In this document: piece after piece, positions 4,715 through 49,533 of the stretch | Position numbering within the stretch: position 1 is the first letter of the stretch | Layout of the letters: the number at the start of each line of letters is the position of its first letter | From: Candidatus Uhrbacteria bacterium RIFCSPHIGHO2_12_FULL_60_25 | GTDB lineage: Bacteria > Patescibacteriota > Patescibacteriia > 2-12-FULL-60-25 | Assembly (NCBI GenBank): GCA_001791275.1 | Contig: MGEH01000024.1 | Span: 11,097-75,096, forward strand | Length of the DNA stretch: 64,000 bases | Reading direction: 5' to 3' | The notes under the pieces: model-generated | What the model was told of the DNA's origin: nothing | The model's database searches: none | What the model saw: the letters and a program-made list of their open reading frames with translations, nothing else | Position numbers and translations under genes: made by a program

Positions 4715-4739
4715 GGCGGAGAGTGTAGCAGGAAGACGT

Positions 4740-6663: not shown

Positions 6664-6716
6664 CAACGCATCCTGACTCTTGCCAACATCGTCGCGTCCC
6701 CGTACCCTGCTCCCGC

Positions 6717-8096
6717 ATGTATAAGACCGCGTTGAACCTGAAACGACTTCTCTTGATCGGCGGAGACGTACTCGCGTTGCAAGCGTCGCTCCTTGCGACC
6801 CTCTGGCTTCGGTACGGCAAATTCGAAACGCTCGTCTGGCAGCAGCACCGCGTTCCGTTCTTCTACGTCACGGGTCTCTGGGTCGTGGGACTGTTCGTGG
6901 CCGGACTCTATGACCTGTCGAAAGCTCGAAACGGCCTCGCGTTTTTCCGCCTGTTCCTCGAAGGCATGATCGTGAACCTGCTCGTGGCGTTCGCGTTCTT
7001 CTATCTCATCCCCGTGTTCGGCATCGAGCCGCGCACGAACCTGCTCCTCTACTTCGCCATCTCGCTCCTCTTCGTGTACGTGTGGCGCCTGCTCTATAAC
7101 CGGTACGTCTCCCGCGGACTCTTCCGGAACCGCCTGCTCTTCATCGGCTCGTCCGAAGACGCCCTCGTGATCTGTGAGATGCTGAAAAACCGGCCGCTCG
7201 GCTTCCAGGTGTGCGCCGTGATCCACACGACGCCGCGCGCGTCGTACGCCGCTGACGGGCTTCGGTGGGACGATCGTCTGTCCGCGCTTGAGGACATGCT
7301 TGCCAGGGAACGGATCAGTTCCATCGTCCTGGGTCACAGTCTGGAGGCGCTCCCGGAGCTCCGTGACGCCCTGTACCGGACGCTGTTCACGTCGACGGCG
7401 ATCATCGACCGCAAGGAACTCGAAGAGACGCTGACCGGCCGCGTGCCTGTGGCGAGCGTCACGAAGGCGTGGTTTTTGGAAAACCTCCGCGAGTCGGAAA
7501 AGACCTGGTACGAGGCCGTGAAGCGCGCAATCGACGTGCTGCTCGCCATCCCGTTCGGACTCGTGACGCTCGCGATCACGCCGCTCGTCGCGCTTGCCAT
7601 CAAACTTTCGTCGCGCGGACCCGTATTCTATTCCCAGGTTCGCGTTGGGAAGGGCGGACAGCTCATCCGGATCTGGAAATTCCGCACCATGCATGCGGAC
7701 GCGGAAAAGGACGGTCCGACGTTTACGGCGTCCGCAAAGACGGACGCGCGCCTGTTCTGGACCGGGCGGATCATGCGTCAGTTGCGAATCGACGAACTGC
7801 CACAGGTGTGGAACGTCTTGAAGGGCGACTTGTCGTTCATCGGGCCCCGTCCGGAGCGCCCGGAATTCGTGGGGTCGCTCGTGGAACGCATGCCGTACTA
7901 CGCGCTCCGTCATCTCACGCGACCCGGCTTGACCGGGTGGGCGCAGATCCAGTTATTGACTCCCACGACGAGCCTGGAGGACAACCTGAAGAAACTCCAG
8001 TACGACCTGTACTACATCAAGCACCGGTCGCTCATCCTCGACCTCGCGATCCTGCTCAAAACCATCGGGATTGTGCTTCGGAGGCAAGGGACGTAG
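6717..8096 (+). CDS. Polyprenyl-phosphate glycosyl-1-phosphate transferase (WbaP/EpsB-type bacterial sugar transferase), initiating enzyme
   Basis: 459 aa. N-terminal TM segments followed by KRAIDVLLAIP...SRGPVFYSQVRVGKGG...FRTM...DELPQVWNVLKGDLSFIGPRPERPEF. Confidence 0.93.
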   Translation: MYKTALNLKRLLLIGGDVLALQASLLATLWLRYGKFETLVWQQHRVPFFYVTGLWVVGLFVAGLYDLSKARNGLAFFRLFLEGMIVNLLVAFAFFYLIPVFGIEPRTNLLLYFAISLLFVYVWRLLYNRYVSRGLFRNRLLFIGSSEDALVICEMLKNRPLGFQVCAVIHTTPRASYAADGLRWDDRLSALEDMLARERISSIVLGHSLEALPELRDALYRTLFTSTAIIDRKELEETLTGRVPVASVTKAWFLENLRESEKTWYEAVKRAIDVLLAIPFGLVTLAITPLVALAIKLSSRGPVFYSQVRVGKGGQLIRIWKFRTMHADAEKDGPTFTASAKTDARLFWTGRIMRQLRIDELPQVWNVLKGDLSFIGPRPERPEFVGSLVERMPYYALRHLTRPGLTGWAQIQLLTPTTSLEDNLKKLQYDLYYIKHRSLILDLAILLKTIGIVLRRQGT

Positions 8097-8116: not shown

Positions 8117-9031
8117 CTACATCGGCTCAATCCCCCATTCTTTCAATAACGACCGCAGACCCTCGTCAAAACGGATGCGCGGCTCCCACCCGAGGAGCTC
8201 TTTTGTTAATGAAATATCCGCGAGCGAGTCGCGTGCTTCACCTTTACGCGCATCCTGTCGCGTGACGGGTCCGCCGAAGAATCCGGCGATCTTGTTGATG
8301 GAATGGCGTTCGCCGGAACCGACGTTCAGCACCTCCCCCTTCCCGACGTTGGGCGACGTCATGGCACGAACGTTGGCGTCTACCACGTCCGACACGTGCG
8401 TGAGGTCGCGCGTTTGTCCCCCATCGCCGTGGATGGTGAGCGGTTGACCGGCGAGTTTCTGATTCTTGAAGACGGAAATGACCGTCACGTACGCGCCCTC
8501 GTCGGCCATCCCCGACCCGTAGACGTTGAAGTAACGCAGCGAGACCGTCTCAAGTCCGTAAAAGAACGAGAAGTGTCGGCAAAAGACCTCGCCCACCTGC
8601 TTGTGGAGCGCGTATGGATTCAGCGGGTTCACGGGCATGTCCGGCCGGAGCGGCAGTTCCGGCTGTGCGCCGTAGGCGGAGGACGACGCGGAGTAGACCA
8701 CGCGTTTCACGCCCGCGTCGCGCGCGGCCACGAGGACATTCAGCGTGCCGAAGATATTCGCCTGCGCCGCTTCAATGGGATGTTCGATGGAAAATGGGAT
8801 GCGCGGGAGGGCGCCCACGTGGAACACGCCGTCCACGCCTGCGAAATGCGGCTTGATCTCGTGGAGCTTCGTGAAGTCGGCCTGGATGAATTCCGCGGCT
8901 TCGGGCACGCGCTCACGCCTGCCCGTGGACAAGTTGTCGATAATGCGGACGCGGTGGCCGTCCGCAATCAGCCGTTTCGCGAGATGCGATCCGATAAATC
9001 CGGCACCTCCGGTGACGAGGTAGGTTGCCAT
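8117..9031 (-). CDS. NAD-dependent nucleotide-sugar epimerase/dehydratase (UDP-hexose 4-epimerase-like)
   Basis: 304 aa. [27 protein letters not shown] and YALHK (YxxxK). Confidence 0.88.
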   Translation of the reverse strand: MATYLVTGGAGFIGSHLAKRLIADGHRVRIIDNLSTGRRERVPEAAEFIQADFTKLHEIKPHFAGVDGVFHVGALPRIPFSIEHPIEAAQANIFGTLNVLVAARDAGVKRVVYSASSSAYGAQPELPLRPDMPVNPLNPYALHKQVGEVFCRHFSFFYGLETVSLRYFNVYGSGMADEGAYVTVISVFKNQKLAGQPLTIHGDGGQTRDLTHVSDVVDANVRAMTSPNVGKGEVLNVGSGERHSINKIAGFFGGPVTRQDARKGEARDSLADISLTKELLGWEPRIRFDEGLRSLLKEWGIEPM

Positions 9032-9038
9032 AGCGAGA

Positions 9039-9965
9039 TTAGAGCCTACTCGCGGGCGCCGGATCTGTCGAGGGAACGGGACGCGCGGTCACGATCATCA
9101 TGTCGCGCGGGTTGATGCGGACGGACAGGCGTTGCAGGAGCGGCCGTTCGGTGAGCCGTTTCAACCACTTCCATTCGAACCCGAGCCACCCCATGATGAA
9201 GTGGATCACGTAGGCGATCGTAAAATCCTTGCCGCGCCACTCGACGGAAACGAACTCAAACCCAGAGTCCGCCAGGCACGCCTTCATGCTCTGGAGCGAG
9301 AAGTAATGGATGTGCTGCGGAGGCGCCAAGAGCGTCCACCATCGGCCCGTGATGCGCGCGAACCAGGAGTCGCTCTGGGGCGTTGCAAACATGATGAGCC
9401 CGTCTGATGACATGATGCGTCGTATCACGCGGAAGAACTCGAACGGATCGCGCAGGTGCTCCACCACATCCCAAAGCGTGATCGCATCCACGCCCCGGAA
9501 CCGCTCGGCGTTCGCTTCGAGCGTCCCCTGCGCCACGTCCAACCCGCGCGCCCTCATGACCGTGGCCGCGTGCTCGGACAGTTCCACGCCGGACGCCTTC
9601 CAACCGCGTTCCTCTGTCATGCGCATGAAAAAACCCGTAGCCGCGCCCACATCGAGCAACCAACCCTTGGACGGTTTCCGCGCTTCGATGCGCTCGAGGA
9701 AATACGTGAAATCCGTTGCCACGCTCTGCTTGTCGCGATCGTAGTTCACGTACCCGTGCTTGGACGTATCGCCCTGGAAATACCCTTTGTCGTAGAACGC
9801 GATCAGCTCCGCCTCGGTCGGGATCGGGTGGATCCACAGGTGCTTGCACGTCCCGCACCGGTACAGCGACCAACGGTCTTTCGTGAACGCGAAACGGCCC
9901 GTGTGTCCGCTCTTCCCGGACGGACATGCGAGCTCGTTCGGACGCGATGCTACGGCTTCTTCCAT
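9039..9965 (-). CDS. Class I SAM-dependent methyltransferase with an N-terminal Cys-rich (zinc-ribbon-like) segment
   Basis: 308 aa. CPSGKSGH...YRCGTCKH followed by the LLDVGAATGFF SAM motif. Confidence 0.8.
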   Translation of the reverse strand: MEEAVASRPNELACPSGKSGHTGRFAFTKDRWSLYRCGTCKHLWIHPIPTEAELIAFYDKGYFQGDTSKHGYVNYDRDKQSVATDFTYFLERIEARKPSKGWLLDVGAATGFFMRMTEERGWKASGVELSEHAATVMRARGLDVAQGTLEANAERFRGVDAITLWDVVEHLRDPFEFFRVIRRIMSSDGLIMFATPQSDSWFARITGRWWTLLAPPQHIHYFSLQSMKACLADSGFEFVSVEWRGKDFTIAYVIHFIMGWLGFEWKWLKRLTERPLLQRLSVRINPRDMMIVTARPVPSTDPAPASRL

Positions 9966-11887
9966 ACGGAAACGTTATTGCCAACATGTTCTTCGACGTA
10001 CCCGGCCGGCAACTGCCAGAACGCACTCTGCGGATCCGGAATGATGACCCACGGACAGAACGCGCGGAAGGCGTACTTGTCCAACGTATGACGATTGATC
10101 GCCGCTTCGACGCGCTTCCAGTTCGCGTCGATCACGGCCTGACGGCACCCGATGAGTTCATTCGCCCGAGCCTGGTCGAACCCCATGCGTCGCAACACGT
10201 CCGCATAGAACGCATTGTGCGAATACTTGCTCCCTTCGGCGCACGGGATCGTTCGGTAGTGACCCGTGTAGAACCGGAAGAACCAGAGTTCGCCTGACGA
10301 CGTGACGCTGTATGCGCCCACCAGCGTCTCCAGATCGCGAATGACCTGCTCGCTTGAGTCGGGGTACGACAACGTGGGTTCAGCCGGATTCACGCGGCGT
10401 CCCGTATGGGCGGCGTAGAACGACGCGGATCCGGGATCGGCGCACATCATGTCTCCGGGCGGGACGTGAGACCTGATCCAGTCCACGACCGGGACGTTCA
10501 CCATGACCTCCGGGACCTTGGGAAAGTCCCGCAGGATGACGGGGATGCTTGCTCCGACCCCGATGGCTGCCATGGGCAGCGTGATGAGGATCGTGACGAC
10601 GGTCGTGTTCAGATGTGACGAGGTATGTCTCGACCGCCAGACCACGAGCCAGGCCGCCACGGCGAGCGCGAACCAGTGCGTCAGGTGGATCACGTACGAG
10701 TCGAACTTCCAGATATTCGATCGAAGCGGCTGCTGGAGCACGTAGACGAAGAACAACGTGGCGCCCGCGGCGACGACAAGCGGAAGTTGTTTGATGAGTG
10801 CATTTCCCAGTCCCCGTTTCCCAGTCCCCGTTTCCCAGTCCCCAGTCCCCAGACCCCAGACCGTGGCGAGCGAAAGCCATGCGAGCACGGCCACGGGCGC
10901 GATGAAGTGGTCGCTGTAGATATGGATGCCGGTGAACGGCGTGTTGAACCACAGGAAGAACAGGACGATCCATCCCCATGCCGCGAACGTGAGTCGATCG
11001 CGTGCGGCTGGCGACGCGGCGCGGCGCGCCAGTGCGAACAGGAACGCGATCCATGCGAGCATGGCAAGCACCGTGTTCGCGAAGAATGGCACGCGCGCGA
11101 ACACCATCCCGTTCCGCTCGTACATGCCCACGAGCCCTGCGCGCGCCGGATCGAGGAACCACTCTGCAAGCGGACCGGCGAGCGTCCACACGGTGATGAC
11201 GGAGAGCGCGACCAGGACCGGCAAGGTCCACGTGCGCAGCCGGACGAACCGCGCGGCCCAGATCGTGGCGAGCCAGAGTCCCGCGGGCATGAGGAACCAC
11301 GGGTAGAGGGTCGTGAGAAGGAGCGACGCGACGGACAGACCGATGGACCGGACGTATCGGTCTTTTTTCAGGGCTTCGTACGCCGGAAGGACGAGCGTAA
11401 GCCCGAGCATGCAAAACGGCAGGTACCACGAGTACATCCCGGGCCGGAGACTCAAGGGCAGGAGCGACAACCAGAGGCCCGCGATGACAGCGCGTGACGG
11501 CCAGCGCGCGATGCCTGACCACTGCTCCACGCACCAGGCGCCGATCCAGAGCGTGAGCGTGATCGCGATCCATCGGCTCACGATCCAGAGCTCCGGGACG
11601 CTCGCCCATGAGCCGACGAGCTTCCAGAGCGCCACGATGATAAGCGACCCGAACCATTTCAGGTGTCCGCCGTACGCGAGCCCGTTCGCCGCGGCGCCCA
11701 TCCAGTGCAGGTAGACGTACGTATCGAAGACCCCCGGAGTGACGGCGGGCACACGCCACCAACGTTCCACGTGCGCGGACACGTTCCAAATCCAATACGG
11801 CACCCAGGAGACAAGCCCTGTCAGGACCGGCACGCCGACCCACCATGCGCGCTCTCCATATCGCTTGAGGTCAAATGAGCGGGACAT
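9950..11887 (-). CDS. Large polytopic membrane protein, paralogue 1 of an unnamed family (GT-C-like candidate)
   Basis: 645 aa with many hydrophobic segments. Shares the VFDTYVYL loop motif, PFTGIHIYSDHF and four C-terminal Cys positions with the ORFs at 15274-17133 and 45625-47697. Confidence 0.85.
   Translation of the reverse strand: MSRSFDLKRYGERAWWVGVPVLTGLVSWVPYWIWNVSAHVERWWRVPAVTPGVFDTYVYLHWMGAAANGLAYGGHLKWFGSLIIVALWKLVGSWASVPELWIVSRWIAITLTLWIGAWCVEQWSGIARWPSRAVIAGLWLSLLPLSLRPGMYSWYLPFCMLGLTLVLPAYEALKKDRYVRSIGLSVASLLLTTLYPWFLMPAGLWLATIWAARFVRLRTWTLPVLVALSVITVWTLAGPLAEWFLDPARAGLVGMYERNGMVFARVPFFANTVLAMLAWIAFLFALARRAASPAARDRLTFAAWGWIVLFFLWFNTPFTGIHIYSDHFIAPVAVLAWLSLATVWGLGTGDWETGTGKRGLGNALIKQLPLVVAAGATLFFVYVLQQPLRSNIWKFDSYVIHLTHWFALAVAAWLVVWRSRHTSSHLNTTVVTILITLPMAAIGVGASIPVILRDFPKVPEVMVNVPVVDWIRSHVPPGDMMCADPGSASFYAAHTGRRVNPAEPTLSYPDSSEQVIRDLETLVGAYSVTSSGELWFFRFYTGHYRTIPCAEGSKYSHNAFYADVLRRMGFDQARANELIGCRQAVIDANWKRVEAAINRHTLDKYAFRAFCPWVIIPDPQSAFWQLPAGYVEEHVGNNVSVWKKP
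10803..10865. repeat. Nine tandem heptamers (TTTCCCA GTCCCCG ... GACCCCA) in-frame within the membrane-protein gene
   Basis: Read directly. The coding strand is TGGGGTC TGGGGAC TGGGGAC TGGGAAA CGGGGAC TGGGAAA CGGGGAC TGGGAAA, encoding GLGTGDWETGTGKRGLGN. Confidence 0.85.
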
Positions 11888-12560
11888 GGCGGAGAATGTC
11901 TTCAGGTTTCATGACGATCCAGCACCCGAGGCCGAGCGCGGGCCAGTCCGACCGGAAGCGGAATGGAAGACCGGGATACTTCTCCCGCGTATGTCGCGCG
12001 GAGAACAGTTCTTCATCCGCCCACACGCCCGTCCTGCCGAAGAAGCAGCTGTTCACCCAGAGGATCAAACGCATGTGCGGGGTGTCGGGCGGGAGTTCGA
12101 GGACCACCGCGTTCCGCGCGCATCGCGCGTGCTCACGCAGGATGCGCGCCTGTTCGTCCGGTTCAAAGTGTTCAAGGAGACCAAGAGAGTAGACCACGTC
12201 GAACGACGCGTCCGGGAACGGCATGGCCATGGCGTCGCCAAGGACGATCTCACACGCCGTGGCGTGCGCTTTGCCCAGCTCATAGGCACGCGGCGTCTTT
12301 TCGATCCCCGTGCATTTCGCGCCCGTCATCTGTTGCAGTCGGACGATCGTTTGCGCGGACCCCACGCCGACTTCCAGGTAGGACGTTGCCGGGCCCCCGA
12401 GCTCGGCGATGCGCTTTGCGAACAATTTCGAGAAATAGACCTCCCGGCCCCAGTGGATCATGCGGTCAAACCACCCCTTCTGGCCCTCTTCGGCCGCGTA
12501 GTAGCTGTCCCACATCTCGGGACTATTATTGTGTCGTTTCGTCTGTGGTCGGTCGTTCAT
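11871..12560 (-). CDS. Class I SAM-dependent methyltransferase
   Basis: Start taken at MNDRPQ (12560). YLEVGVGSAQT SAM motif and FDVVYSLGLLEHF. Confidence 0.8.
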   Translation of the reverse strand: MNDRPQTKRHNNSPEMWDSYYAAEEGQKGWFDRMIHWGREVYFSKLFAKRIAELGGPATSYLEVGVGSAQTIVRLQQMTGAKCTGIEKTPRAYELGKAHATACEIVLGDAMAMPFPDASFDVVYSLGLLEHFEPDEQARILREHARCARNAVVLELPPDTPHMRLILWVNSCFFGRTGVWADEELFSARHTREKYPGLPFRFRSDWPALGLGCWIVMKPEDILRHVPLI

Positions 12561-13353
12561 ACGCAGTGAGAGGTTTTCGGAATTTCCAGCCCAGGCGCCA
12601 CGGCATGCCAACGGCTTCAAGGATGATTCGCTTGTTCAGCTTGGACGCGCCGAGCGTACGGTCGCGGAACACGATCGGGACTTCGATGGCCGGGAAGCCC
12701 AGCCGGAACGCCACGAATTTCAGCGCCGTGAGGAACGAGTACCCATCACCCATGACGGGCTGTTTCAGGACGGAGCGGAGCACGTCCGCACGCCATACGA
12801 TGAACCCCGCCGTATTATCGCGCACCGGGTAGGATGGGTAAAACAGGCGGAGCACGGTGCGCGCGTACAGGTTCCCGCCGCGGGACAGGAGGACGCGCCG
12901 GTGGTCCCAGTCCGGCGTTGACCCGCCCTGCACATACCGCGAGCCGACCGCGACACCATACGTGCGCGCGCGTTCGATCAAGAGCGGCAGCATCTCGGGG
13001 TCATGCGAGAAGTCCGCATCCGTCTGGATCACGATCCCATACCCGGGGGCGTGCTCTTGCACCCAAGCGAACGCATCGAGGTAGCAGCGCCCCAATCCGT
13101 ACTTCCCCGTGCGCCGCATGAGGATGATGCGTCGCGGCAGCGACGGCGCGAGCCGCTCCACCGCGTCCGCCGTTCCGTCCGGGCTGCCGTCGTCTGCCAC
13201 GAGGACGTCCGCCGGGATCTCGAGGCCCGTGAGGGCCGTGAGCAACCGCTCGATGTTCCCCCGTTCGTTATACGTGGGAACGATCACGACCGCCCGACCT
13301 TGCGGCAGGCGGTCGTTCCACGTGGTGACCGAAGCGACACGGACGTCCGTCAT
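12526..13353 (-). CDS. Polyprenol-monophosphomannose synthase-like GT2 (Ppm1/DPM1 type), copy 1
   Basis: Real start is MTDVRV at 13353, in an ATGA overlap with the gmd stop. VVIVPTYNERGNIERLL...DDGSPDGT...TDADFSHDP. Confidence 0.88.
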   Translation of the reverse strand: MTDVRVASVTTWNDRLPQGRAVVIVPTYNERGNIERLLTALTGLEIPADVLVADDGSPDGTADAVERLAPSLPRRIILMRRTGKYGLGRCYLDAFAWVQEHAPGYGIVIQTDADFSHDPEMLPLLIERARTYGVAVGSRYVQGGSTPDWDHRRVLLSRGGNLYARTVLRLFYPSYPVRDNTAGFIVWRADVLRSVLKQPVMGDGYSFLTALKFVAFRLGFPAIEVPIVFRDRTLGASKLNKRIILEAVGMPWRLGWKFRKPLTAYERPTTDETTQ

Positions 13354-14396
13354 GCCTGTGTGAATTGGAGGTCCGGACGTTTGAGGCGCGCGACCTCCAC
13401 GTCCACCATGCGCGCCACGAGCGTGTCGAACGACATGCGCGTGGTCCAACCGAGCTCGCGTTTCGCCTTGGACGCATCTCCACGCAGCTCGTCTATTTCC
13501 GCGGGACGGAAGTGAGCGGGGTCGATCGTGATGACCGTCTGGCCGTTCGCTGCATTCTTCCCGATCTCGTCCGCACCCCGCCCTTCCCACACGATGGTGA
13601 TCCCCACGCGGCCGAATGCCCGTTCGGTGCATTCGCGTACGCTGTAGTTCTCGCCAGTGGCAAGCACGTAGTCGTCCGGCATCGGACGCTGGAGCATGAG
13701 CCACATCCCTTCCACGTAGTCCCCGGCGAATCCCCAGTCGCGCCTGGCTTCCAGGTTCCCGAGCCTGATCGGCTCGGACGATCCCCGTGCGATCTTCGCG
13801 GCTCCCGCGGCGATCTTGCGCGTGACGAACTCCGGACCGCGCATCTCCGATTCGTGGTTGAACAGGATCCCGTTCGTGAGGTACAGGCCGTACGACTCGC
13901 GATAATTCTTGATGGTCCAGAACCCGGCGAGCTTGGCCACGCCGTACGGGCTCCGCGGATGGAACGGAGTGCGTTCGTCCTGCGGCACGGCCTCGGCCTT
14001 GCCGTACATTTCGGACGTGGCCGCGAAATACATCTTTGTGCGTTGGCTGTATTCCTTGATCGCGTTCACGAAATTCAGCGTGCCACCGATGTTGATGTCG
14101 TACGTGGCCTTGGGATTCTCGAAACTCAACCCCACGAAGCTCTGCGCGGCGAGGTGGTAGATCTCGTCGTAGCGGTTCATGCGCACGAGCGAGTCGATGA
14201 ACGGATGGTCGAGCACGTCGCCCCAGTGCATCTTGATGCGGCTCCGTTCGTCCGGCGTCAGGAACACGAGCGTCCCGAGCGCCATCTGGCTGTTCCGGCG
14301 CGCGAACCCGTGGACCTCATACCCTTTTCCAAGCAGGAATTTCGCAAGGAAATATCCGTCCTGCCCGGTAATGCCCGTAATCAACGCCTTTTTCAT
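13350..14396 (-). CDS. gmd: GDP-mannose 4,6-dehydratase
   Basis: 348 aa. MKKALITGITGQDGYFLAKFLLGKGYEVHG is a classic Gmd N-terminus; full length is consistent with Gmd. Confidence 0.95.
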   Translation of the reverse strand: MKKALITGITGQDGYFLAKFLLGKGYEVHGFARRNSQMALGTLVFLTPDERSRIKMHWGDVLDHPFIDSLVRMNRYDEIYHLAAQSFVGLSFENPKATYDINIGGTLNFVNAIKEYSQRTKMYFAATSEMYGKAEAVPQDERTPFHPRSPYGVAKLAGFWTIKNYRESYGLYLTNGILFNHESEMRGPEFVTRKIAAGAAKIARGSSEPIRLGNLEARRDWGFAGDYVEGMWLMLQRPMPDDYVLATGENYSVRECTERAFGRVGITIVWEGRGADEIGKNAANGQTVITIDPAHFRPAEIDELRGDASKAKRELGWTTRMSFDTLVARMVDVEVARLKRPDLQFTQA

Positions 14397-14415
14397 AGCG
14401 CGAGGATGATAACCG

Positions 14416-15228
14416 TTACCTGCCGGACTGTGAAGGGTCGGACTTCCGGAACCGCCACCCCAATTTCCACGGCATGATGAACGCTTCGAACACGATATGC
14501 CGATTCAGTTTCGACACGCCGAGGCGGCGGTCGCGGAACACGATGGGGACTTCGATGGCGGGGTAGCCGAGCCGGAACGCAACGAGCTTGATAGAGGTCT
14601 GATACGCGTACCCGTCGCCGTAGATGGGATGGCGCATCACCGTGTCCAGGACATCGCGACGGAACGCCGCGAATCCGGCCGTACTGTCCTTGATGAGGTA
14701 GGAAGGGAAGAAGAGGCGCAACACCAGACGCGCGTAGATGTTCCCCACGTGCGACAGGAGGAAGCGACGATGGTCCCAGTCCGGCGTGGCACCGCCCTGC
14801 ACATACCGGGAACCGACCGCGAGCCCGTACGCCTCGGCCCTCGCCATGAGGAGCGGGATCATGTGCGGGTCGTGCGAAAAGTCCGCGTCCATCTGGAGCA
14901 CGAGGCCGTATCCGGGCGCATGCAGAAGGATCCAACGGTAGGCGTCCGTGTACGCCACGCCGAGGCCGAACTTCCCGGAACGACACATCAGGATGATCCG
15001 ACGCGGGAGCGAGGGGGCGAGCCGTTCGACGGCGTCCGCCGTGCCGTCCGGACTACCATCATCGACCACGAGCACGTCCACGCCAGGTTCAAGCGCCGCA
15101 AGCTCGCGCACGAGCGCCTCGATGTTGTCGCGCTCGTTGTAGGTGGGCACGACCACAAGCGCCTTCCCTTCCGGGAGGTGCGCGTTCAGCGCATCCACGC
15201 GAACGATCCGTTCCTGTTCGAACGACAT
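14416..15228 (-). CDS. Polyprenol-monophosphomannose synthase-like GT2, copy 2
   Basis: 270 aa. LVVVPTYNERDNIEALV...DDGSPDGTADAVERLAPSLPRRIILM (26 aa identical to copy 1)...MDADFSHDP. Confidence 0.9.
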   Translation of the reverse strand: MSFEQERIVRVDALNAHLPEGKALVVVPTYNERDNIEALVRELAALEPGVDVLVVDDGSPDGTADAVERLAPSLPRRIILMCRSGKFGLGVAYTDAYRWILLHAPGYGLVLQMDADFSHDPHMIPLLMARAEAYGLAVGSRYVQGGATPDWDHRRFLLSHVGNIYARLVLRLFFPSYLIKDSTAGFAAFRRDVLDTVMRHPIYGDGYAYQTSIKLVAFRLGYPAIEVPIVFRDRRLGVSKLNRHIVFEAFIMPWKLGWRFRKSDPSQSGR

Positions 15229-15273
15229 ATGGAAGGTGTCAGTGAAGCACGGTTTGGTGTGGCTGCCAAGCCT

Positions 15274-17133
15274 CTACTTTGCGCCGTATACGACGGCGGT
15301 CGCGTCTTCGTAGAGCTTGACGTAGGACAATGGGATTCGCCAGTCGTCCGAGAATCGTTCGTGAATTACGATCCGTTGGCAAAAATCGGAATCATTCGCG
15401 GTCTGTTGTGCCCATTGCAACTTCATTCGAGCGATCACTGCTGCACGAATCGCATTGGCCCGATCCTCGTCGCACCCGCTCAAAAATATACGCTGCGTCG
15501 CAGTAAATGGAATGAGGTTCAGGATCTGACGAGCGGTCGTTGACAAACAAGCGGCATCATGTGCAATGAGGATCATGTCGTCCATATACGAACGCTCAAT
15601 ACCTGCGTCTGGGTTCAAATACTTTGAGAACTCGACGAGGCGATCCTGAAGAACGCTCGTTGGAACGTGGTCGAACATCATCACCATCGCCGGACTGAAC
15701 GAAGCCCCGGTCGTTGAAGAGAGGTCGTCACCTGTTAGATAATCTGCACACCAACGACGCAAATGTACCTTCGTATCTTGGAGCATCCAGCTCCTTACAC
15801 CTATCAACTCAGAAGATAGCTGCGTTCGCTCCATTGCATACGCACCAACTGAAATAATACCTATCAGTGCATACACGAACGCTATGAAACACCAGATCAA
15901 ATTCAAACGAAGACGTGTGATTCCAGATAGGAGTCCGAGTGCAAGAAACGTCCAGCTTCCGATATGGATCAGGAGCGAGGAAAAATCCATGAATCGATAC
16001 ACGCCAATTGCATATTTAGAGAGGATATACATTGTAAAAGCGTATGCGACCATAGCGAGCACAAAAAGAATCGATCGCCAGCGGTTGAAAATTGACTCAC
16101 GTGCATATATTGGCCACGCCACAACTGAGAAAATAGAAAGGTGCCACACGGGGTAAATAAAATGATCGGATAATATCGAGATACCGGTCAGGAGCGATTG
16201 ATTCCAAAGAATTGCGACCGCTACCCACGCTGCGAGCATGACCTCTGTAGAAATACACCTCTGTGGAGATATGCGCCTCTGAAAAGATTGTGACCTTCGA
16301 AGTATCGTCCAAGCGATAATCCACAATATAATGATGAGTATGCTATTACTGAGGACAGGTAGGTGAGAAAATCCAAGTGCACCACGTTCCATAAGCTCAT
16401 AAGTCGAAGAACGTAAAAAAGTTTCCCACCAATCATGACGCATCAAGATAAGTCCTTCAGCAATTACGAAACCGACCGCGAGGATGATGATCGCCGACAA
16501 CGGCTCAAGAAATCGTTTCAAGAACAGCAGGACGCACGTAACAAGGATGACTGAAACATACCAGGGATAAACCGCCGAAATGAATAGTGCCACACCCCAT
16601 AACGCCGTGCCGCGTATTCTCTTTCCTATGGCAAGATCATATTCTCCGAGAACTACGAGGAGAAATCCGAGATAAAAAAATGGCACATACCACGAGGAAC
16701 CGCCTGGCCGAAGAATAAGAATTGATTGAACGGAAAGAAATGCGAGGAGACTATAAAATCTTGTTCCAACAATTGAGAGATCGGTCAATTTTTGTAACAA
16801 AATTGCAAGAAACCAAACGCTCAGGATTGCGGAGACGATAATACCAAGCACATAAAGTTCCGATAGTGATACATACGGCCAGATCAAACGTGCGACATAT
16901 TCCATCGGACGAAAATGAATTGGAAGAATGGTGGAACCATTAAATAGATCCTTTGACAAAATTTGCAAATAAAATGTCTGGTCAAAAAAAACTTTTGGTA
17001 AGGCCGAAATTCTTAGCCCCTTCGGTACTGAAAGGGCACCGAGCCCGAACCAATAGCTAGCACCGATCGCTACAGGCAGTACCCCATACCATACCCATGG
17101 CATCGAAAGCCACTTTTTCAATGTGAGTTTCAT
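15274..17133 (-). CDS. Large polytopic membrane protein, paralogue 2 of the unnamed family (lower-GC copy)
   Basis: 619 aa. FFDQTFYL loop motif, LLTGISILSDHF, and C-terminal Cys positions conserved with the 9950 and 45625 proteins. ATGA overlap with the upstream GT2. Confidence 0.85.
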   Translation of the reverse strand: MKLTLKKWLSMPWVWYGVLPVAIGASYWFGLGALSVPKGLRISALPKVFFDQTFYLQILSKDLFNGSTILPIHFRPMEYVARLIWPYVSLSELYVLGIIVSAILSVWFLAILLQKLTDLSIVGTRFYSLLAFLSVQSILILRPGGSSWYVPFFYLGFLLVVLGEYDLAIGKRIRGTALWGVALFISAVYPWYVSVILVTCVLLFLKRFLEPLSAIIILAVGFVIAEGLILMRHDWWETFLRSSTYELMERGALGFSHLPVLSNSILIIILWIIAWTILRRSQSFQRRISPQRCISTEVMLAAWVAVAILWNQSLLTGISILSDHFIYPVWHLSIFSVVAWPIYARESIFNRWRSILFVLAMVAYAFTMYILSKYAIGVYRFMDFSSLLIHIGSWTFLALGLLSGITRLRLNLIWCFIAFVYALIGIISVGAYAMERTQLSSELIGVRSWMLQDTKVHLRRWCADYLTGDDLSSTTGASFSPAMVMMFDHVPTSVLQDRLVEFSKYLNPDAGIERSYMDDMILIAHDAACLSTTARQILNLIPFTATQRIFLSGCDEDRANAIRAAVIARMKLQWAQQTANDSDFCQRIVIHERFSDDWRIPLSYVKLYEDATAVVYGAK

Positions 17134-17849
17134 TGATGCTTAGAAAATTTCTTATGGAACTGAAGCATCGCGCGACTCACACTCACCAAATTTTCCCAAC
17201 GCAATGCGGTGGACCGTCCTTGTCGTGGAAGGATACGCATAGGGACTTCTACAAACGATGCGCCTTCTCGAAGGAGCGTGAGTAGTATCTCTGCGGCATA
17301 TGCGAAACTTGGAGTTTCTGGCAATGCGCGACGAAGTTGATCGATCCGATATACATTAATCCCATTGAAGTAGCGGACACGACGATGGTACATGACATTT
17401 AATATTATCGTGAATACTCTCGAGATGAGACGTCGAAGCAACGACCGTACTTCAGGATTTTCCGTATACGTAACGACCATGTCGGCGGAACCAATCGCAC
17501 AAATGACGCGCGCGACAGATATACTGTCAATTTCATTATCTCCGGGAACCATGACCACATGATTCTTGGTCGCCGCCAAAACGGCGTTTCGATATTTTTC
17601 TCCGAGAAGCTGGTATGTAGGACTGTGAAGTACTCGAATGCGTGCGTCTGATGCCGCAAGCTCCTGTGCGATGAGCCGAGTTCGATCTTCACGCCCATCA
17701 CGATCCACGCACGTCACAATGATCATTTCATAATCCTGAATCTCCGCTTTCGTAAGAGCGCTGCGTACTCCCTGTATCGTCGCTTCAATATTACGCTCCT
17801 CATTCAATGCAGGGATGATGATACTCAAGGATATGTTCATGGCCTGCAA
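17130..17849 (-). CDS. GT2 glycosyltransferase, DPM1/GtrB-like
   Basis: 239 aa. LSIIIPALNEERNIE...VPGDNEID. Confidence 0.85.
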   Translation of the reverse strand: MQAMNISLSIIIPALNEERNIEATIQGVRSALTKAEIQDYEMIIVTCVDRDGREDRTRLIAQELAASDARIRVLHSPTYQLLGEKYRNAVLAATKNHVVMVPGDNEIDSISVARVICAIGSADMVVTYTENPEVRSLLRRLISRVFTIILNVMYHRRVRYFNGINVYRIDQLRRALPETPSFAYAAEILLTLLREGASFVEVPMRILPRQGRSTALRWENLVSVSRAMLQFHKKFSKHQ

Positions 17850-17892
17850 AGACTACAGAAGTGAGTCGCGATTGACAAGCAATATCGATCAC

Positions 17893-18396: not shown

Positions 18397-18398
18397 GA

Positions 18399-18983: not shown

Positions 18984-18987
18984 ACCA

Positions 18988-20598: not shown

Positions 20599-20698
20599 GT
20601 AAGACGGTATTTGAACCGAGAGAACCAGTCTTGTCAAACAGTAAAAGATAAAGAAAGAAGGGACCGCGTGAGTACGGGTCCCTTCCAGTGTCGCCGCG

Positions 20699-43672: not shown

Positions 43673-43699
43673 AAGTGAATGAAAGATAACAATTTCCTA

Positions 43700-44530: not shown

Positions 44531-45613
44531 TTATCTTTTTAATATATCGAGGACCTTCACCGCCGTCGTTCCGTCCCCGAACGGGTTCGTCCAATCGCGC
44601 GCTTTCGCCATCATGCGCCGCATCGTATCCGCAAGGGATGCCGGGTACGCCTCGAAATGGAGCGCGTTCGAGCCGGCGTCGAGCGTCTCCGGCCGTTCGG
44701 TGTTCGCGCGCAACGTGACGCACGGCACGCGCAGGATGCACGCCTCTTCCTGAATCCCTCCGGAATCCGTGAGCACCACATCCGCGGACGACTGGAGCCG
44801 TAACAGGTCGAGATAGCCGACGGGTTCCGTGAGGATGAACGGATCGCCGAGTGAGAGATGCGCGGCGTCCATAGCCGCCTTCGTCCTCGGGTGGACCGGG
44901 AACACCACCATGAGTCCAAGCGTACGCGCGGCGTCCCCGATGGACGAAAGGATGGCGCGAAGCCGCGCGGGATCGTCCACGTTGCTCGGACGGTGCATGG
45001 TGAGGAGCGCGTACGGACGGTTCGTGACGCCCAGACGCTCCGCGATGTCGCTCTTGTCGTACGCGACCTTCGTATAATGAAGTGACGCGTCCACGATCGT
45101 GTTGCCCACCACGTGCACGCCGTCGTGATCGATCCCTTCTTTCAGAAGACGCTGACGCTGCAGGTCGGTCGGACAAAAAAGCCACTTGGACAGACGGTCC
45201 GCCAGGACGCGATTGGATTCTTCGGGCATGTCCCAGTCGTCGCTCCGAAGTCCGGCCTCGAGGTGTGCGACCGGAATGTTGGATTTATATGCCGCGAGCG
45301 CGCCAGCGAGCACCGAGTTCGTATCCCCTTCTACCATCACGATCTCCGGCCGTAGTTCATCGAACACGTCGTGTAGACGCTGCATCATGAGACCGATCTG
45401 GCGCGACGCCGGGTGCGAACCCACGTGCACATGCGCGACCGGTTCGGGCAGATTTAGTTCGGAAAAGAAAACGCCGTCCAGCTCCGATGAGTAGTGCTGG
45501 CCCGTATGGATGATGCCCACAGGCAACCCGCGCCGTTGCGCTTCCAAAATGACGGGAGCGCACTTGATGAGCTCCGGCCGGGTGCCGAGGACGACCCCCA
45601 AAAACGGTTTCAT
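44531..45613 (-). CDS. wecB: UDP-N-acetylglucosamine 2-epimerase (non-hydrolysing), copy 1
   Basis: 360 aa. GTRPELIKCAPV, HTGQHY and HLEAGLRS. Confidence 0.92.
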   Translation of the reverse strand: MKPFLGVVLGTRPELIKCAPVILEAQRRGLPVGIIHTGQHYSSELDGVFFSELNLPEPVAHVHVGSHPASRQIGLMMQRLHDVFDELRPEIVMVEGDTNSVLAGALAAYKSNIPVAHLEAGLRSDDWDMPEESNRVLADRLSKWLFCPTDLQRQRLLKEGIDHDGVHVVGNTIVDASLHYTKVAYDKSDIAERLGVTNRPYALLTMHRPSNVDDPARLRAILSSIGDAARTLGLMVVFPVHPRTKAAMDAAHLSLGDPFILTEPVGYLDLLRLQSSADVVLTDSGGIQEEACILRVPCVTLRANTERPETLDAGSNALHFEAYPASLADTMRRMMAKARDWTNPFGDGTTAVKVLDILKR

Positions 45614-45624: not shown

Positions 45625-47697
45625 ATGCCCGTTTTTTCCGCCGCCGTCAAACCCCCGGGATGGCTCGGTTATGCGGCTTTCCGCTTGACCATGGGCGTGT
45701 ATGAGCCTAGTCTGCATGTCATGTCCCCCTTCGCTGTCGCTCCGGGGGACGCGTGGAGCATGATGACACCGAAGGAACCCCGTCCCACGAAGCCCCGCAT
45801 ATTGCGGGGCGAAGTGGAATGGTGGCTCGGCGCGCCCATCGCGGTCGCACTCCTGACCTGGGGGCCGTATTGGGTCCGGAATCTCGCGATCGGACGCAAA
45901 GACTGGACTCGCATCCCGGCGCTCGCGGCGACCGTGTTTGACCTCACGGCCTATCTGCAACCGATCGGGCAAGCGATGACGGGTGTCGTGACCGCACATC
46001 TCATCGGTCCTTTCGCGCTGCTCATGCGTCTCATCGCGCTCACGTTCCCGAACGCGAGCGTGCCCGAAGCCTGGTTTGTGGCACGATGGATGGCGACGAC
46101 CGCGGCGCTGTTTGTATTCGCATGGTGCCTTGAGCGCTGGTCCGGAGTGGGTCGTAACATGGCGCGCCTGCTGTCGCTCTCATTCTGGATCGCGTTCATC
46201 CTCGTGCTCGGCATGAAACCCGGATTCGCCTCGTGGCTGTTCCCGTTTGGTGTGCTTGGGATGGTCGGTGTGACCATCGTTGGTGAGCGTCTCACAAAGC
46301 GACGGATCATTTCCGCGATCGTGTGGTCTGCCATCGCACTCACAAGTTCCTCGCTCTATGCCTGGTACTTTTTATTCGTTGCCGTGTGGCTCGGCGTGAC
46401 CTGGTTCCTCTGGCTCGTAAAAAATACTCCACGCGTCGCACTCTCGCTCGCCGCGATCGGGTCCGTATCCGCTTGCGTATTCGCCGTCGTGTTCGCCTAC
46501 TGGATCACGCTCACTCCCGCAGGCATCGTCTGGATCGAACTGACCCAACGCCTGTCATTGAGCTACACGCACATGATCTTCATCTCGGGATCCGTGCTGC
46601 TCACGATGCTCTGGACCGTTCTCTTCGGAGCAATCTATGCGGTCGCGAGTTCGGACGATCGACCAAAGATCGAGGTGACGGGCATTGCCTGGCTCTCGCT
46701 CCTCTTCACCTTCTTCCACTCCCCGTTCACCGGCCACTACATCCAGAACGATCACTTCCGAAGCGCCGCCGCGATCCTTTCCTGGTTCGCCCTCGCCGTC
46801 ATCTGGTCTCTCGTTCATCAAAGTCCGACGACGCACGACGCACGACGCACCCGTTTCATCCCCTATCTCACCCTCTTCATCTCCCTCGCCTACGTGATCC
46901 GCATCCTCGCCGCCCCCTATGCCTGGAACCGTGACTTCTTGAACGTGCTTCAACTCACGCACTGGTTCGCACTGCTCATCGCATCATGGCTCGCGATTCG
47001 ATGGATGCAAGGAAAGAAACCGCTCGAGACAAAGACGTTCGCGACCATCGTCCTTTCCGGATCACTCCTGATCGGAGGCAACGCAATGGCAGCGACCTAC
47101 TTCTATGAATTCAAAGACCTTCCAAAGATCGAAGCGCTCATACCCGTCTTCAACTGGGTGAAAGCGAATGTGCCACCAGGAATCTCAATCTGTACAGGCC
47201 AGGGAGGAGAAGGATTTAATATCGATGACATGTTGGCCGCTCAGACAGGACGTGTAGTGCATTTCTCACATACCACCATGTACCACAAAGAACGAGACGT
47301 AGCTCTTCTTGACAGGCTACGTGTTATTTCCGGTTTTTTTGATGCGGGAACGGCTGGTGATCAAGTAAACTGGCAGCTCTTGAGCTCAGAAAACCAATTC
47401 ATCGTCTGTGCTCAGTATCCCGTGCAGGTGAAGCTGTTCCATGCACTCGGTCTCTCTGAAGATCGTATTGATGCGCTCATCGGCTGTCCTCGAAAGACGA
47501 TCGATGCACGCTGGGCGTATGTGAAGGATGCGATGGATCACCCGATCCGAGACATGGAAGCGTTCAAGCGTGTGTGTCCATTTGTCGTCGTCCCGAACGC
47601 AAAAAAATCGTATTGGCATTTGCCGGATGACTATCGTGAAATCCCTGTGACGAACGAGATATACGTGTTTGCATCTATATCAACCGATCTTCGATGA
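45625..47697 (+). CDS. Large polytopic membrane protein, paralogue 3 of the unnamed family
   Basis: 690-aa ORF. By comparison with the paralogues, the start is likelier at 45721 or 45760. VFDLTAYL, PFTGHYIQNDHF and the conserved C-terminal Cys positions are present. Confidence 0.85.
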   Translation: MPVFSAAVKPPGWLGYAAFRLTMGVYEPSLHVMSPFAVAPGDAWSMMTPKEPRPTKPRILRGEVEWWLGAPIAVALLTWGPYWVRNLAIGRKDWTRIPALAATVFDLTAYLQPIGQAMTGVVTAHLIGPFALLMRLIALTFPNASVPEAWFVARWMATTAALFVFAWCLERWSGVGRNMARLLSLSFWIAFILVLGMKPGFASWLFPFGVLGMVGVTIVGERLTKRRIISAIVWSAIALTSSSLYAWYFLFVAVWLGVTWFLWLVKNTPRVALSLAAIGSVSACVFAVVFAYWITLTPAGIVWIELTQRLSLSYTHMIFISGSVLLTMLWTVLFGAIYAVASSDDRPKIEVTGIAWLSLLFTFFHSPFTGHYIQNDHFRSAAAILSWFALAVIWSLVHQSPTTHDARRTRFIPYLTLFISLAYVIRILAAPYAWNRDFLNVLQLTHWFALLIASWLAIRWMQGKKPLETKTFATIVLSGSLLIGGNAMAATYFYEFKDLPKIEALIPVFNWVKANVPPGISICTGQGGEGFNIDDMLAAQTGRVVHFSHTTMYHKERDVALLDRLRVISGFFDAGTAGDQVNWQLLSSENQFIVCAQYPVQVKLFHALGLSEDRIDALIGCPRKTIDARWAYVKDAMDHPIRDMEAFKRVCPFVVVPNAKKSYWHLPDDYREIPVTNEIYVFASISTDLR
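46830..46850. repeat. (GACGCAC)x3 perfect heptamer tract in-frame in the membrane-protein gene
   Basis: Read directly. Encodes part of TTHDARRT, in the loop homologous to the tract at 10803-10865. Confidence 0.8.
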
Positions 47698-49533
47698 AAA
47701 TTTCTTCCACCACAACTGAAACGTGAGGATTGACCAGATCGCGTGCAAACCATACGCACGCTTGGACAGGTGATCATCGAGGATCTTGTTCGCGGCCGCG
47801 AAATCAATGAACGCCGCGGTCTCCGGGTTATAGGATGGTGACAGGACCTCGCGGACGAATGGAAGCAACGGACCGCGGATCCATTTGGCGGCCGGGCTCA
47901 TCCATGCGCGCTTCTCTTGGTCTAAGACGTGTGACGGAAGATACGGACGCATCGCGTCGATCAAGACCTTCTTTCCCTGCGTCCGCGAATCGAGTTTGAA
48001 ACGTGTCGGGATGCGAAACGCGTATTCAACAAGATCCACGTCGAGTAACGGCACGCGCTCTTCAAGACCATGCGCCATGGTGAGTTTGTCCGTACGTACG
48101 AGCGACTCATCCGGCAACCAGGTCTGCACGTCTGCGGCCATGAGCTGATTCGTGGCATCTCGCCATTCCGAAGCGAACGAAGGCGCGAGCGCAGAACGGA
48201 CGTCGCCCGGAGTCTTTAGGAACGACCGGACCGATACTTCTTTCTGCATCACGAATGACAAGTGACGCTCAAGCCCCGGCGTCGTCGCGGTCTTCTTCGC
48301 GAATTCTTTGCTCAAGCAAAGTCCGAGCGCCTGTCGTGCAATCGGGATCCGTCGGATGAGATCGATCTTCTGTGCGTACCAGTACCGCGGATATCCCCCG
48401 AACAATTCGTCTCCCCCATCGCCGCCGAGCGCGACCGTGATCGTGGGCTTTGCGAACTTTGCGAGCAGATATGTGGACGACTGGACGTGGTTTGAGACCG
48501 GTTCATCCATGTACAAAGCGATGTCATCGAGACATGCGAGCACGACTGCCGCGGTCATCGTGAATTCGTAATGTTCCGTCTTAAAATGATCCGATGTCTG
48601 TCGTGCGAGTCGCGCGTCCGCGTTGTATTTCTGCGGATCGATCTCCGTCTCATAACCAACCGAAAACGTTTTAATCGTTCCCGACGGATCCAAATCGCGC
48701 ATCATTGCGAGCACGGACGTCGAGTCGACGCCGCCAGACAAAAAGACGCCGAGCGGTCGGTCAGACACGAGTTGACGCTGCACAGCGGAGCGGACGCGCT
48801 CACGAACGCCAACGACCGCATCCTTGTATGACGTGATCTGTTTCCCTTCTTCCAGCTTCCACCACTGTTTCATCGCGACCTGTCCGTCCTTTCCGCCAGA
48901 GGCTGATCCACCTTTGGCGGAGAACGTCAGTGCATGCCCAGGTTGAAGTTTTTTCACATCGCGAAACATCGTTCGCGGACCCGGGACGTAGAGAAGACGG
49001 AAATACTGACCCACCGCTTCCATATCCACGACTCGTGATACGTCATGTTCCAGGATCGCTTTGATCTCTGAAGAAAAGATCAGACGCGTTCCGTCGACAT
49101 GGTAGTACAGCGGCTTGATCCCGATCTGGTCGCGGACCAACGTGAGCGATCTTTCGTCTCGGTCCCATACCGCGAACGCAAAGATGCCGTTTAGCTTGCG
49201 CAGACCGTCCACGCCCCATCGCGCAAAGAATCTCAAAAGAACCTCGGTATCTGATTGAGACGTGAATGTCTCGCCAAGCCCTTCAAGCTCACGCTTCAGC
49301 TCGCGATAATTATAGATCTCCCCGTTGTAGATGATGGTGTAACGTCCGTCAGGGCTCGTCATGGGCTGATGTCCGCCCGGAGACAGGTCAATTATGGACA
49401 GACGATTGTGCGCGAACGAAATTCCGGGCGCTTCAAAAAAACCCTCGTCATCTGGACCACGATGTGTCGTCGCCCTGTGCATGCGTCGCAACGCATCGGC
49501 GTCGTTCCATGTAAAACCATTGACACCGCACAT
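47680..49533 (-). CDS. Asparagine synthase (glutamine-hydrolysing)-family amidotransferase, copy 1
   Basis: 617 aa. MCG N-terminal nucleophile and [11 protein letters not shown]-loop. Confidence 0.92.
   Translation of the reverse strand: MCGVNGFTWNDADALRRMHRATTHRGPDDEGFFEAPGISFAHNRLSIIDLSPGGHQPMTSPDGRYTIIYNGEIYNYRELKRELEGLGETFTSQSDTEVLLRFFARWGVDGLRKLNGIFAFAVWDRDERSLTLVRDQIGIKPLYYHVDGTRLIFSSEIKAILEHDVSRVVDMEAVGQYFRLLYVPGPRTMFRDVKKLQPGHALTFSAKGGSASGGKDGQVAMKQWWKLEEGKQITSYKDAVVGVRERVRSAVQRQLVSDRPLGVFLSGGVDSTSVLAMMRDLDPSGTIKTFSVGYETEIDPQKYNADARLARQTSDHFKTEHYEFTMTAAVVLACLDDIALYMDEPVSNHVQSSTYLLAKFAKPTITVALGGDGGDELFGGYPRYWYAQKIDLIRRIPIARQALGLCLSKEFAKKTATTPGLERHLSFVMQKEVSVRSFLKTPGDVRSALAPSFASEWRDATNQLMAADVQTWLPDESLVRTDKLTMAHGLEERVPLLDVDLVEYAFRIPTRFKLDSRTQGKKVLIDAMRPYLPSHVLDQEKRAWMSPAAKWIRGPLLPFVREVLSPSYNPETAAFIDFAAANKILDDHLSKRAYGLHAIWSILTFQLWWKKFSSKIG

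Follow-up and report, generated by a model that had tools for sequence, protein, structure and literature searches.

A putative GT-C-fold glycosyltransferase family, nearly confined to Patescibacteria, that is coupled to polyprenyl-phosphate-sugar-synthase-like GT2 proteins

We describe a family of polytopic membrane proteins with three members (A, B and C) encoded in a 64,000-nucleotide stretch of DNA from Candidatus Uhrbacteria bacterium RIFCSPHIGHO2_12_FULL_60_25 (contig MGEH01000024.1, positions 11,097 to 75,096), hereinafter the window, to which all coordinates below refer. We consider it quite probable that this family is the glycosyltransferase C-fold (GT-C) component of an extracytoplasmic glycosylation system fed by polyprenyl-monophosphate sugars, because the predicted fold, the membrane topology and the fusion and synteny with family 2 glycosyltransferases (GT2) converge on this mechanism. 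The glycosyltransferase activity and the lipid-phosphate-sugar donor are putative assignments that follow most likely from the GT2 fusions and gene adjacency. The three genes are:

9950..11887, minus strand: paralogue A, 645 residues, predicted GT-C-fold protein with 13 transmembrane (TM) helices and a C-terminal four-cysteine extracytoplasmic domain (residues ~463-645)
15274..17133, minus strand: paralogue B, 619 residues, the most divergent of the three copies
45625..47697, plus strand: paralogue C, a 690-residue open reading frame (ORF) with a probable true start at ATG 45760, giving about 645 residues

A first-pass annotation of this DNA had proposed the three ORFs as paralogues of 620-690 residues. 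They are indeed present at these coordinates and strands and align end to end with 23-30% identity; the lengths hold for the ORFs as such, but that of C exceeds its homologues by about 50 residues at the N-terminus, and comparison with these places its start probably at ATG 45760. Paralogue A is 100% identical to an annotated hypothetical protein of the same organism, and B sits in a low-GC stretch (45.6% GC at 16001-18000). The shared motifs were likewise recovered, namely that following the first TM helix (VFDTYVYL, FFDQTFYL and VFDLTAYL) and the mid-protein DHF motif (PFTGIHIYSDHF, LLTGISILSDHF and PFTGHYIQNDHF), while exactly four cysteines are found in the C-terminal domain of 49 of the 51 members that we aligned. 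In this alignment, in which identity falls to 21% (residue numbers follow A), D55, Y59, E99, W154, Y195, W306, H327, W405 and C611 are invariant, and F54, R148, P149, G150, R258, G320, D326, F328, C482, C549 and C581 are conserved in at least 90% of the sequences. The persistence of these motifs down to 21% identity indicates that they are not chance features.

We modelled the A-type protein with AlphaFold2 from a 24-sequence alignment. The resulting model (predicted local distance difference test score, pLDDT, 87.6; predicted template-modelling score, pTM, 0.88) shows 13 long TM helices and an α/β C-terminal domain spanning residues ~463-645; its first outer loop (38-96) holds two short helices (56-67 and 77-91), with D55 starting the first, juxtamembrane one. 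In a Foldseek search against the PDB the top 19 matches are all GT-C enzymes (STT3, PglB, DPY19, ArnT, AftA, EmbA/B and ALG9) from seven different GT-C families, at probabilities of 0.87-1.00 and E-values of 1e-3 to 0.16, with AftD placed lower. The best E-values belong to STT3 and PglB (1e-3 to 4e-2) and the highest TM-scores to ArnT (target-normalised values of 0.43 for 5ezm and 0.40 for 5f15) and AftA (0.41). The GT-C matches are followed by MFS and ABC transporters at probabilities of at most 0.3 and TM-scores of about 0.1-0.16, and none of the WaaL, Wzy or SEDS (RodA, FtsW) structures appears among the top 50 matches. Thus the GT-C likeness which had earlier been read from the loop-1 motif is recovered by a confident model, while transporters match only at low probability. 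The model suggests that A, B and C are GT-C-fold proteins of a previously uncurated family.

The predicted topology points in the same direction. With loops taken from the model helices, the predicted inner loops carry 14.3 lysine and arginine residues per 69 residues as against 4.5 per 87 in the outer loops, and this bias, in keeping with the positive-inside rule, holds in all 51 sequences. Independently, the fusion of GT2 and S-adenosylmethionine (SAM)-dependent methyltransferase domains to the N-terminus of some members (see below) implies that this terminus is cytoplasmic, since those domains need cytoplasmic substrates. By the 13-TM topology the segments that face outward are loop 1 with FD55, P98-E99, R148-P149-G150, Y195-P196-W197, E257-R258, the TG...D326-H327-F328 motif and the four-cysteine domain, such that every conserved polar residue is predicted to lie on the outer face. 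The charge bias together with the N-terminal fusions hence supports the extracytoplasmic placement of the FD motif, the DH motif and the cysteine-rich domain that had been surmised before, and this placement is the arrangement of GT-C active sites (PMC11127046). The four conserved cysteines would fit two disulfides. By analogy with ArnT and PglB, a segment of low model confidence (261-265) just behind an outer helix (247-260) may serve as a substrate-gated loop. The C-terminal domain modelled alone with AlphaFold2 reached a pLDDT of 93.6. We also observed a short tandem repeat inside gene A (10803-10859), with a 7/14-nucleotide unit CCCAGTC... and up to 7.7 copies at the 7-nucleotide period; it encodes a Gly/Thr-rich cytoplasmic loop between TM10 and TM11 (residues ~347-362) that has low pLDDT and is unconserved.

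The functional context comes from gene fusions and conserved neighbourhoods. Two proteins (P0054 and that of locus L018) are fusions of a DPMS-like GT2 to the family that are 31% identical over about 900 residues, and a third (P0051) is the same kind of fusion as P0054 truncated at its 5' end. Another pair (P0020, at locus L001, and that of L006) carries a GT2 of the type encoded at 51670-52404 in the window, with 59% identity over 856 residues. In P0037 a GT2, a methyltransferase and the family domain follow one another in a single polypeptide in the order of the genes upstream of A, whereas P0002 is a fusion of a methyltransferase of the type encoded at 11871-12560 to the family domain. Fusion to a GT2 is found in at least four diverged lineages. 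The arrangement of all these fusions is colinear even between diverged genomes, which excludes frameshift artefacts. The stand-alone proteins of the window resemble these fused domains closely: GT2 12526-13353 is 58% identical to the GT2 domain of P0054, methyltransferase 11871-12560 is 63% identical to that of P0002, and GT2 51670-52404 is 69% identical to the N-terminal domain of P0020.

Across 32 family copies in 20 non-redundant loci, three copies are fused to a GT2, about nine are directly preceded by a DPMS-like GT2 (often fused to a methyltransferase) or by a methyltransferase, and four each are directly followed by a DPMS-like GT2, followed by a Methyltransf_23 gene or preceded by an AsnB gene. 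Altogether, about half of the copies have a DPMS-like GT2 or a methyltransferase either as a fusion partner or as an immediate neighbour. This reveals the conserved synteny with DPMS-like GT2 genes, up to gene fusion in several lineages, that had been anticipated from the window alone, and it is consistent with the logic of the GtrB-GtrC and Ppm1-PMT pairs, in that DPMS-like GT2s adjoin or are fused to a family with a predicted GT-C fold.

In the window, paralogues A and B lie in a neighbourhood comprising the following genes:

20699-22732, minus strand: fused E1_dh/transketolase-like protein, in the same tightly packed operon (17893-22732) upstream of the GT2/B pair
18988-20742, minus strand: HAD+PfkB fusion (GmhB/HldA-like), upstream of GT2/B
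18399-19043, minus strand: SIS/GmhA-like protein, upstream of GT2/B
17893-18396, minus strand: HldC-like cytidylyltransferase-fold protein, directly upstream of GT2/B
17130..17849, minus strand: small soluble generic GT2, ATGA-coupled upstream of B (PF00535, E=1.9e-11)
14416..15228, minus strand: DPMS/Ppm1-like polyprenyl-phosphate glycosyltransferase (GT2), 46 nucleotides downstream of B
13350..14396, minus strand: GDP-mannose 4,6-dehydratase, gmd (PF16363, E=1.9e-127)
12526..13353, minus strand: second DPMS-like GT2, 68% identical to GT2 14416-15228
11871..12560, minus strand: class I SAM methyltransferase between this GT2 and A (PF08241, E=2.8e-15)
9039..9965, minus strand: second methyltransferase (Methyltransf_23), overlapping the 3' end of A, a conserved downstream partner
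8117..9031, minus strand: SDR sugar-nucleotide epimerase/reductase, TviC/GalE-like
6717..8096, plus strand: Bac_transf polyprenyl-phosphate sugar-1-phosphate transferase, an initiating enzyme (PF02397, E=2.4e-58), syntenic in L002 and L015
4268..4780, minus strand: GtrA-family small membrane protein, candidate flippase for the lipid-linked sugar (PF04138, E=2.9e-15)

Along the minus strand the order thus runs from the HAD-PfkB, GmhA-like SIS and HldC-like genes through GT2 17130-17849, B, a DPMS-like GT2, gmd, the other DPMS-like GT2, the methyltransferase and A to the Methyltransf_23 and SDR epimerase genes; beyond the latter lie Bac_transf on the opposite strand, an S8 peptidase, GtrA and a further epimerase (3205-4233). 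The block from A to this epimerase is syntenic in two other loci (L002 and L015), and Methyltransf_23 adjoins a family copy in four (L003, L009, L010 and L014). Bac_transf is the sole plus-strand gene within the otherwise minus-strand block. The ORF antisense to it (6663-7913, minus strand) is spurious, being an Arg/Glu-rich translation of high-GC DNA that has no family match.

The arrangement had been described as two modules flanking gmd, which holds, although the DPMS-like GT2 at 14416-15228 had been overlooked. Reading of the junction confirms that GT2 17130-17849 ends and B begins within a shared ATGA. The methyltransferase behind the GT2 at 12526-13353 does run into A, its stop overlapping the start of A by 17 nucleotides; at its own 5' end it either overlaps that GT2, whose stop is at 12526, by 35 nucleotides (start at ATG 12560) or lies 11 nucleotides apart from it (ATG 12514). 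The GtrA-family gene that had been noted nearby is likewise present, 5 kb from A. The assignment of the GT2s of both copies to the DPM1/GtrB/Ppm1 type fared unevenly: it stands for 12526-13353, but the gene coupled to B (17130-17849) is recognisable as a generic GT2 only, and an attempt to place it in the DPMS/GtrB subtype gave sub-significant matches that do not establish the call. By comparison, the top PDB match of GT2 14416-15228 is the Pyrococcus furiosus DPMS (5mlz, E=2.6e-26), with ArnC and GtrB next; as for GT2 51670-52404, this match spans the entire catalytic domain. In NCBIfam GT2 14416-15228 matches AglJ, ArnC and PpgS, and the models matched among it and the GT2s at 12526-13353 and 51670-52404 are AglJ, Dol-P-hexose transferase, ArnC, PpgS and PgfS. 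No DNA repeat of the kind expected from a recent duplication or gene conversion was found between the genes at 12526-13353 and 14416-15228, which, with the 68% amino acid identity of their products, indicates that the duplication is old. The operon at 17893-22732 looks like a nucleotide-heptose pathway, and this suggests that the B module handles heptose.

We propose that a soluble DPMS/GtrB-like GT2 at the cytoplasmic face would load a sugar from a nucleotide-sugar onto polyprenyl phosphate. In the A module this sugar might come from GDP-mannose or be a gmd-derived 6-deoxyhexose, which the interposed SAM methyltransferase would probably O-methylate, while in the B module it is possibly a heptose. 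The polyprenyl-phosphate-sugar would then be flipped, with the GtrA protein (4268-4780) as the candidate flippase, and at the outer face the GT-C domain would bind the lipid phosphate and pass the sugar to an acceptor at the cell surface, be it a glycan or a glycoprotein. Conceivable acceptors would include a glycopolymer, an S-layer or pilin protein, or a lipid. The conserved basic and aromatic residues R148, Y195, R258 and H327 could bind the phosphate, D55 with E99 and D326 could furnish the catalytic and metal-binding groups, and the disulfide-stabilised C-terminal domain may hold the acceptor.

Several observations weigh against this proposal. No link to a known GT-C family emerged at the sequence level, either in Pfam searches at E<=10 or in the hhalign comparison with PMT_2 detailed below. 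The Foldseek E-values are individually marginal and the whole-chain TM-scores are only 0.3-0.43; the isolated C-terminal domain has no significant Foldseek match (best E 0.78). The matches of GT2 17130-17849 to GtrB and DPMS are sub-significant (E=0.096 and 0.16, respectively). In about half of the family copies no GT2 was detected immediately beside the gene, and GtrA lies within 10 kb in only two of about 20 loci (L002 and L015), many of the others being short contigs. We nevertheless find the GT-C assignment convincing despite the marginal E-values because seven unrelated GT-C families agree.

The sequence searches bear out the earlier statement that no named family could be assigned. A, B and C matched no Pfam model of a GT-C or other family at E<=0.1, and even at E<=10 none of 24 members matched a GT-C model (including PMT, PMT_2, STT3, YfhO and GT87) or that of another family; NCBIfam had no match for the family, nor did the PDB sequences, whether searched by phmmer or with the family profile. 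An hhalign comparison of the 51-sequence family profile with a PMT_2 alignment of 16 sequences, for which the GT4::PMT_2 protein of the window (described below) was the starting point, gave a probability of 3%, and thus the relationship to GT-C enzymes is visible only in structure.

Among known systems, the closest parallels are with those in which a GT2 supplies a monophosphate-linked donor. ArnT (GT83) has a 13-TM GT-C fold with a C-terminal periplasmic domain and a catalytic Asp in its first periplasmic loop, it gives the highest target-normalised TM-score, and its partner ArnC is among the best matches of the DPMS-like GT2s of the window. However, there is no sequence similarity between ArnT and the family, which PMT_2, the model matching ArnT-like GT39-annotated proteins, misses; further, the C-terminal domain of the family has four conserved cysteines and no structural match. 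Bacteria of the candidate phyla radiation (CPR) are not known to have lipid A.

The three-component paradigm of extracytoplasmic glycosylation is well documented (PMC11127046, PMC5836110, PMC8035078). In the GtrA/GtrB/GtrC and GT136 systems of Shigella/Salmonella O-antigen and Citrobacter ORF12, a polyprenyl-phosphate-sugar synthase, a flippase and a GT-C act together (PMC11127046). The same logic is apparent here, with GtrB (sll0501) among the PDB matches of the window GT2s and a GtrA-family gene present; but the GT-C belongs to another sequence family, the synthase is devoid of TM helices and frequently part of the same polypeptide as the GT-C, a methyltransferase stands between synthase and GT-C, and there are three paralogous GT-Cs per genome. 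The CsbB/GtcA/YfhO systems of lipoteichoic acid glycosylation in Gram-positive bacteria, of monoderm type, likewise combine a GT2, a GtrA-like protein and a GT-C (PMC5836110, PMC8035078). They find a counterpart in locus L002 (1-1876, plus strand), where a 1054-residue protein fuses a GT2 to a membrane domain with faint likeness to YfhO; the family itself has no Pfam YfhO match, and this fusion protein is not one of its members. Fusions of GT2 to GT-C thus recur with different GT-C families in these bacteria. In Actinobacteria a soluble DPMS-like Ppm1 feeds polyprenyl-phosphate-sugar to several GT-Cs (PMT, MptA/B, Emb/Aft), of which AftA and EmbA/B are structural matches of the family; no sequence relationship to these enzymes was found, PMT/MIR domains and carbohydrate-binding modules (CBM) are absent, and the lineage is that of Patescibacteria.

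Unlikely, though worth weighing, is a processive extracytoplasmic polymerase in the manner of EmbA/B, AftD or the mycobacterial MptA, which would build a homopolymer from polyprenyl-phosphate-sugar in place of adding single decorations. EmbA/B, AftA and AftD are among the structural matches, each locus has two or three conserved types of paralogue, which recalls the arabinan and mannan assembly lines of mycobacteria, and the surrounding glycan island is very large. Yet the family lacks the large CBMs of Emb/AftD, its C-terminal domain being of only about 180 residues with no CBM match.

The fusion of P0037 invites a further, rather improbable reading, by which proteins of this type are single-polypeptide machines that make the polyprenyl-phosphate-sugar, O-methylate it in the cytoplasm and consume it outside, in a Patescibacteria-specific methylated-sugar route. 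The GT-C domain may itself be the flipping route here, which would explain the absence of GtrA from most loci.

We hold it to be very improbable that the family acts as an oligosaccharyltransferase (OST) or ligase that moves a preassembled glycan en bloc from polyprenyl-pyrophosphate to a protein or polymer, the glycan being started by Bac_transf and exported by the Wzx-like flippase (Polysacc_synt, 27900-29201), both of which are encoded in the window. STT3 and PglB give the best full-length Foldseek E-values, they and AglB (GT66) share with the family the 13 TM helices and a C-terminal globular domain, and STT3/AglB C-terminal domains account for 5 of the 12 top matches of the isolated C-terminal domain, albeit non-significant ones at probabilities of at most 0.16. 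Against this, WWD, the core of the WWDxG motif, is present in none of the 51 members, Pfam STT3 does not match, TM-scores are higher for the monophosphate-donor enzymes ArnT and AftA, and both the gene context and the recurrent fusion partner, a DPMS-like synthase as opposed to an initiating phosphoglycosyl transferase, point to monophosphate-linked monosaccharide donors.

That the family is no transferase at all, being instead a polymerase or ligase of the Wzy/WaaL/SEDS type, or a transporter or flippase for the lipid-linked sugar that the fused GT2 makes, is scarcely credible. In principle, synthesis could be coupled to export by joining a GT2 to a polytopic domain, and most loci lack GtrA; but the poor transporter scores, the lack of WaaL, Wzy, RodA and FtsW matches, and the invariant acidic, basic and aromatic cluster of the outer face with its conserved extracytoplasmic domain fit an outward active site and not a translocation pathway.

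As regards its phyletic spread, exhaustive searching of 1.84 billion cluster representatives with a profile recovered only 83 proteins (68 below 1e-30), the named ones of which are mostly from Patescibacteria/Uhrbacteria, and a scan of 185,579 species genomes yielded 10 loci, most labelled Uhrbacteria or Patescibacteria. Four loci (L003, L004, L009 and L012) come from metagenome-assembled genomes labelled 'Candidatus Methylomirabilis' or 'uncultured Gammaproteobacteria'; their genes are closely homologous to those of the Uhrbacteria window, and the loci are probably mis-binned or mislabelled patescibacterial contigs. The family hence appears almost confined to Patescibacteria. Orthologues of the B type were found in L006, L007, L009, L010, L012 and L014 and those of the C type in L006, L014, L021 and L022, with A-, B- and C-type copies together in one locus in L006 and L014 (also L007 and L012). 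The recurrence of this trio in several genomes indicates that the paralogues are old and presumably not redundant. A literature search combining GT-C with Patescibacteria or the candidate phyla radiation found no papers.

The proposal of a new GT-C-like family using polyprenyl-phosphate-sugar donors is therefore supported, with the proviso that it is new at the sequence level, where no curated model exists, whereas the fold and the three-component logic are established. Its distinctive features are the four-cysteine C-terminal domain, the frequent fusion to a donor synthase, the inserted methyltransferase, the A/B/C trios and the near-restriction to Patescibacteria. These CPR bacteria make up a large share of bacterial diversity, while their cell-envelope glycans are essentially uncharacterised. 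If its activity were shown, the family would probably found a new GT-C family in CAZy, as ORF12 did for GT136 (PMC11127046), and the conserved GT2/methyltransferase/GT-C fusions are directly testable donor-enzyme pairs. No concept is changed, as new GT-C families appear regularly; nevertheless, the family offers a useful way into the glycobiology of the CPR envelope.

In essence, the 64-kb window is a single island of glycan biosynthesis, with GT4s, GT2s, the Wzx-like protein, three DegT aminotransferases, two AsnB-like amidotransferases, methyltransferases, Bac_transf and a GT4::PMT_2 fusion. Around C and beyond it lie:

51670..52404, minus strand: third DPMS-like GT2 (PDB DPMS 5mlz, E=5e-26, then ArnC and GtrB; NCBIfam AglJ, Dol-P-hexose transferase)
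47680..49533, minus strand: AsnB-like amidotransferase, convergent with C, a recurrent neighbour of B- and C-type copies
44531..45613, minus strand: UDP-GlcNAc 2-epimerase, divergent from C, a recurrent neighbour that adjoins a family copy in L007

An AsnB-like gene is directly upstream of family copies in L004, L009, L010 and L014, and in L006 and L012 the genes behind family copies encode GT-Cs of the PMT_2 type. Between the family copies of L012 (6315-9936, minus strand) we also found a UbiA-family prenyl-phosphate transferase, two SDR epimerase-like genes and a PHP phosphatase. This set, which corresponds to components of polyprenyl-phosphate-pentofuranose donor synthesis as for GT136 and mycobacterial arabinan (PMC11127046), resembles by analogy a DPPR/DPA-type pathway for such donors.

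A fourth module of a GT2 and a polytopic protein occupies 41978-44407 (minus strand), within an island of 38-46% GC. Its GT2 (43700-44407) is AglJ/DPMS-like (NCBIfam AglJ, E=9e-39), and a 564-residue multi-TM protein (41978-43672) begins 28 nucleotides later. The latter has the motif 'DESYF' right after TM1 and a homologue in L015 (2104-3786), and matches nothing in Pfam or NCBIfam; hhalign finds no sequence relationship between it and A, B or C. It may represent another uncurated GT-C family. An 848-residue protein (53513-56059, minus strand) joins a cytoplasmic GT4 (Glycos_transf_1) to a C-terminal PMT_2/GT87-like GT-C membrane domain, and its homologues in Uhrbacteria occur both fused and unfused.

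Altogether the window encodes five polyprenyl-phosphate-sugar-synthase-like GT2s (1680-2354, which is PpgS-like with E=5e-45, 12526-13353, 14416-15228, 43700-44407 and 51670-52404, all on the minus strand), besides the generic GT2 at 17130-17849, and five candidate GT-C proteins, namely A, B, C, the 564-residue protein and the GT4::PMT_2 fusion. For a small CPR genome such a set is unusually dense, and it suggests a heavy investment of these ultra-small bacteria in extracytoplasmic glycosylation. Also inside the glycan island are a radical SAM/SPASM protein, a protein with a formyltransferase domain and a GH127-like protein (24843-26099, minus strand; 30145-32047, plus strand).

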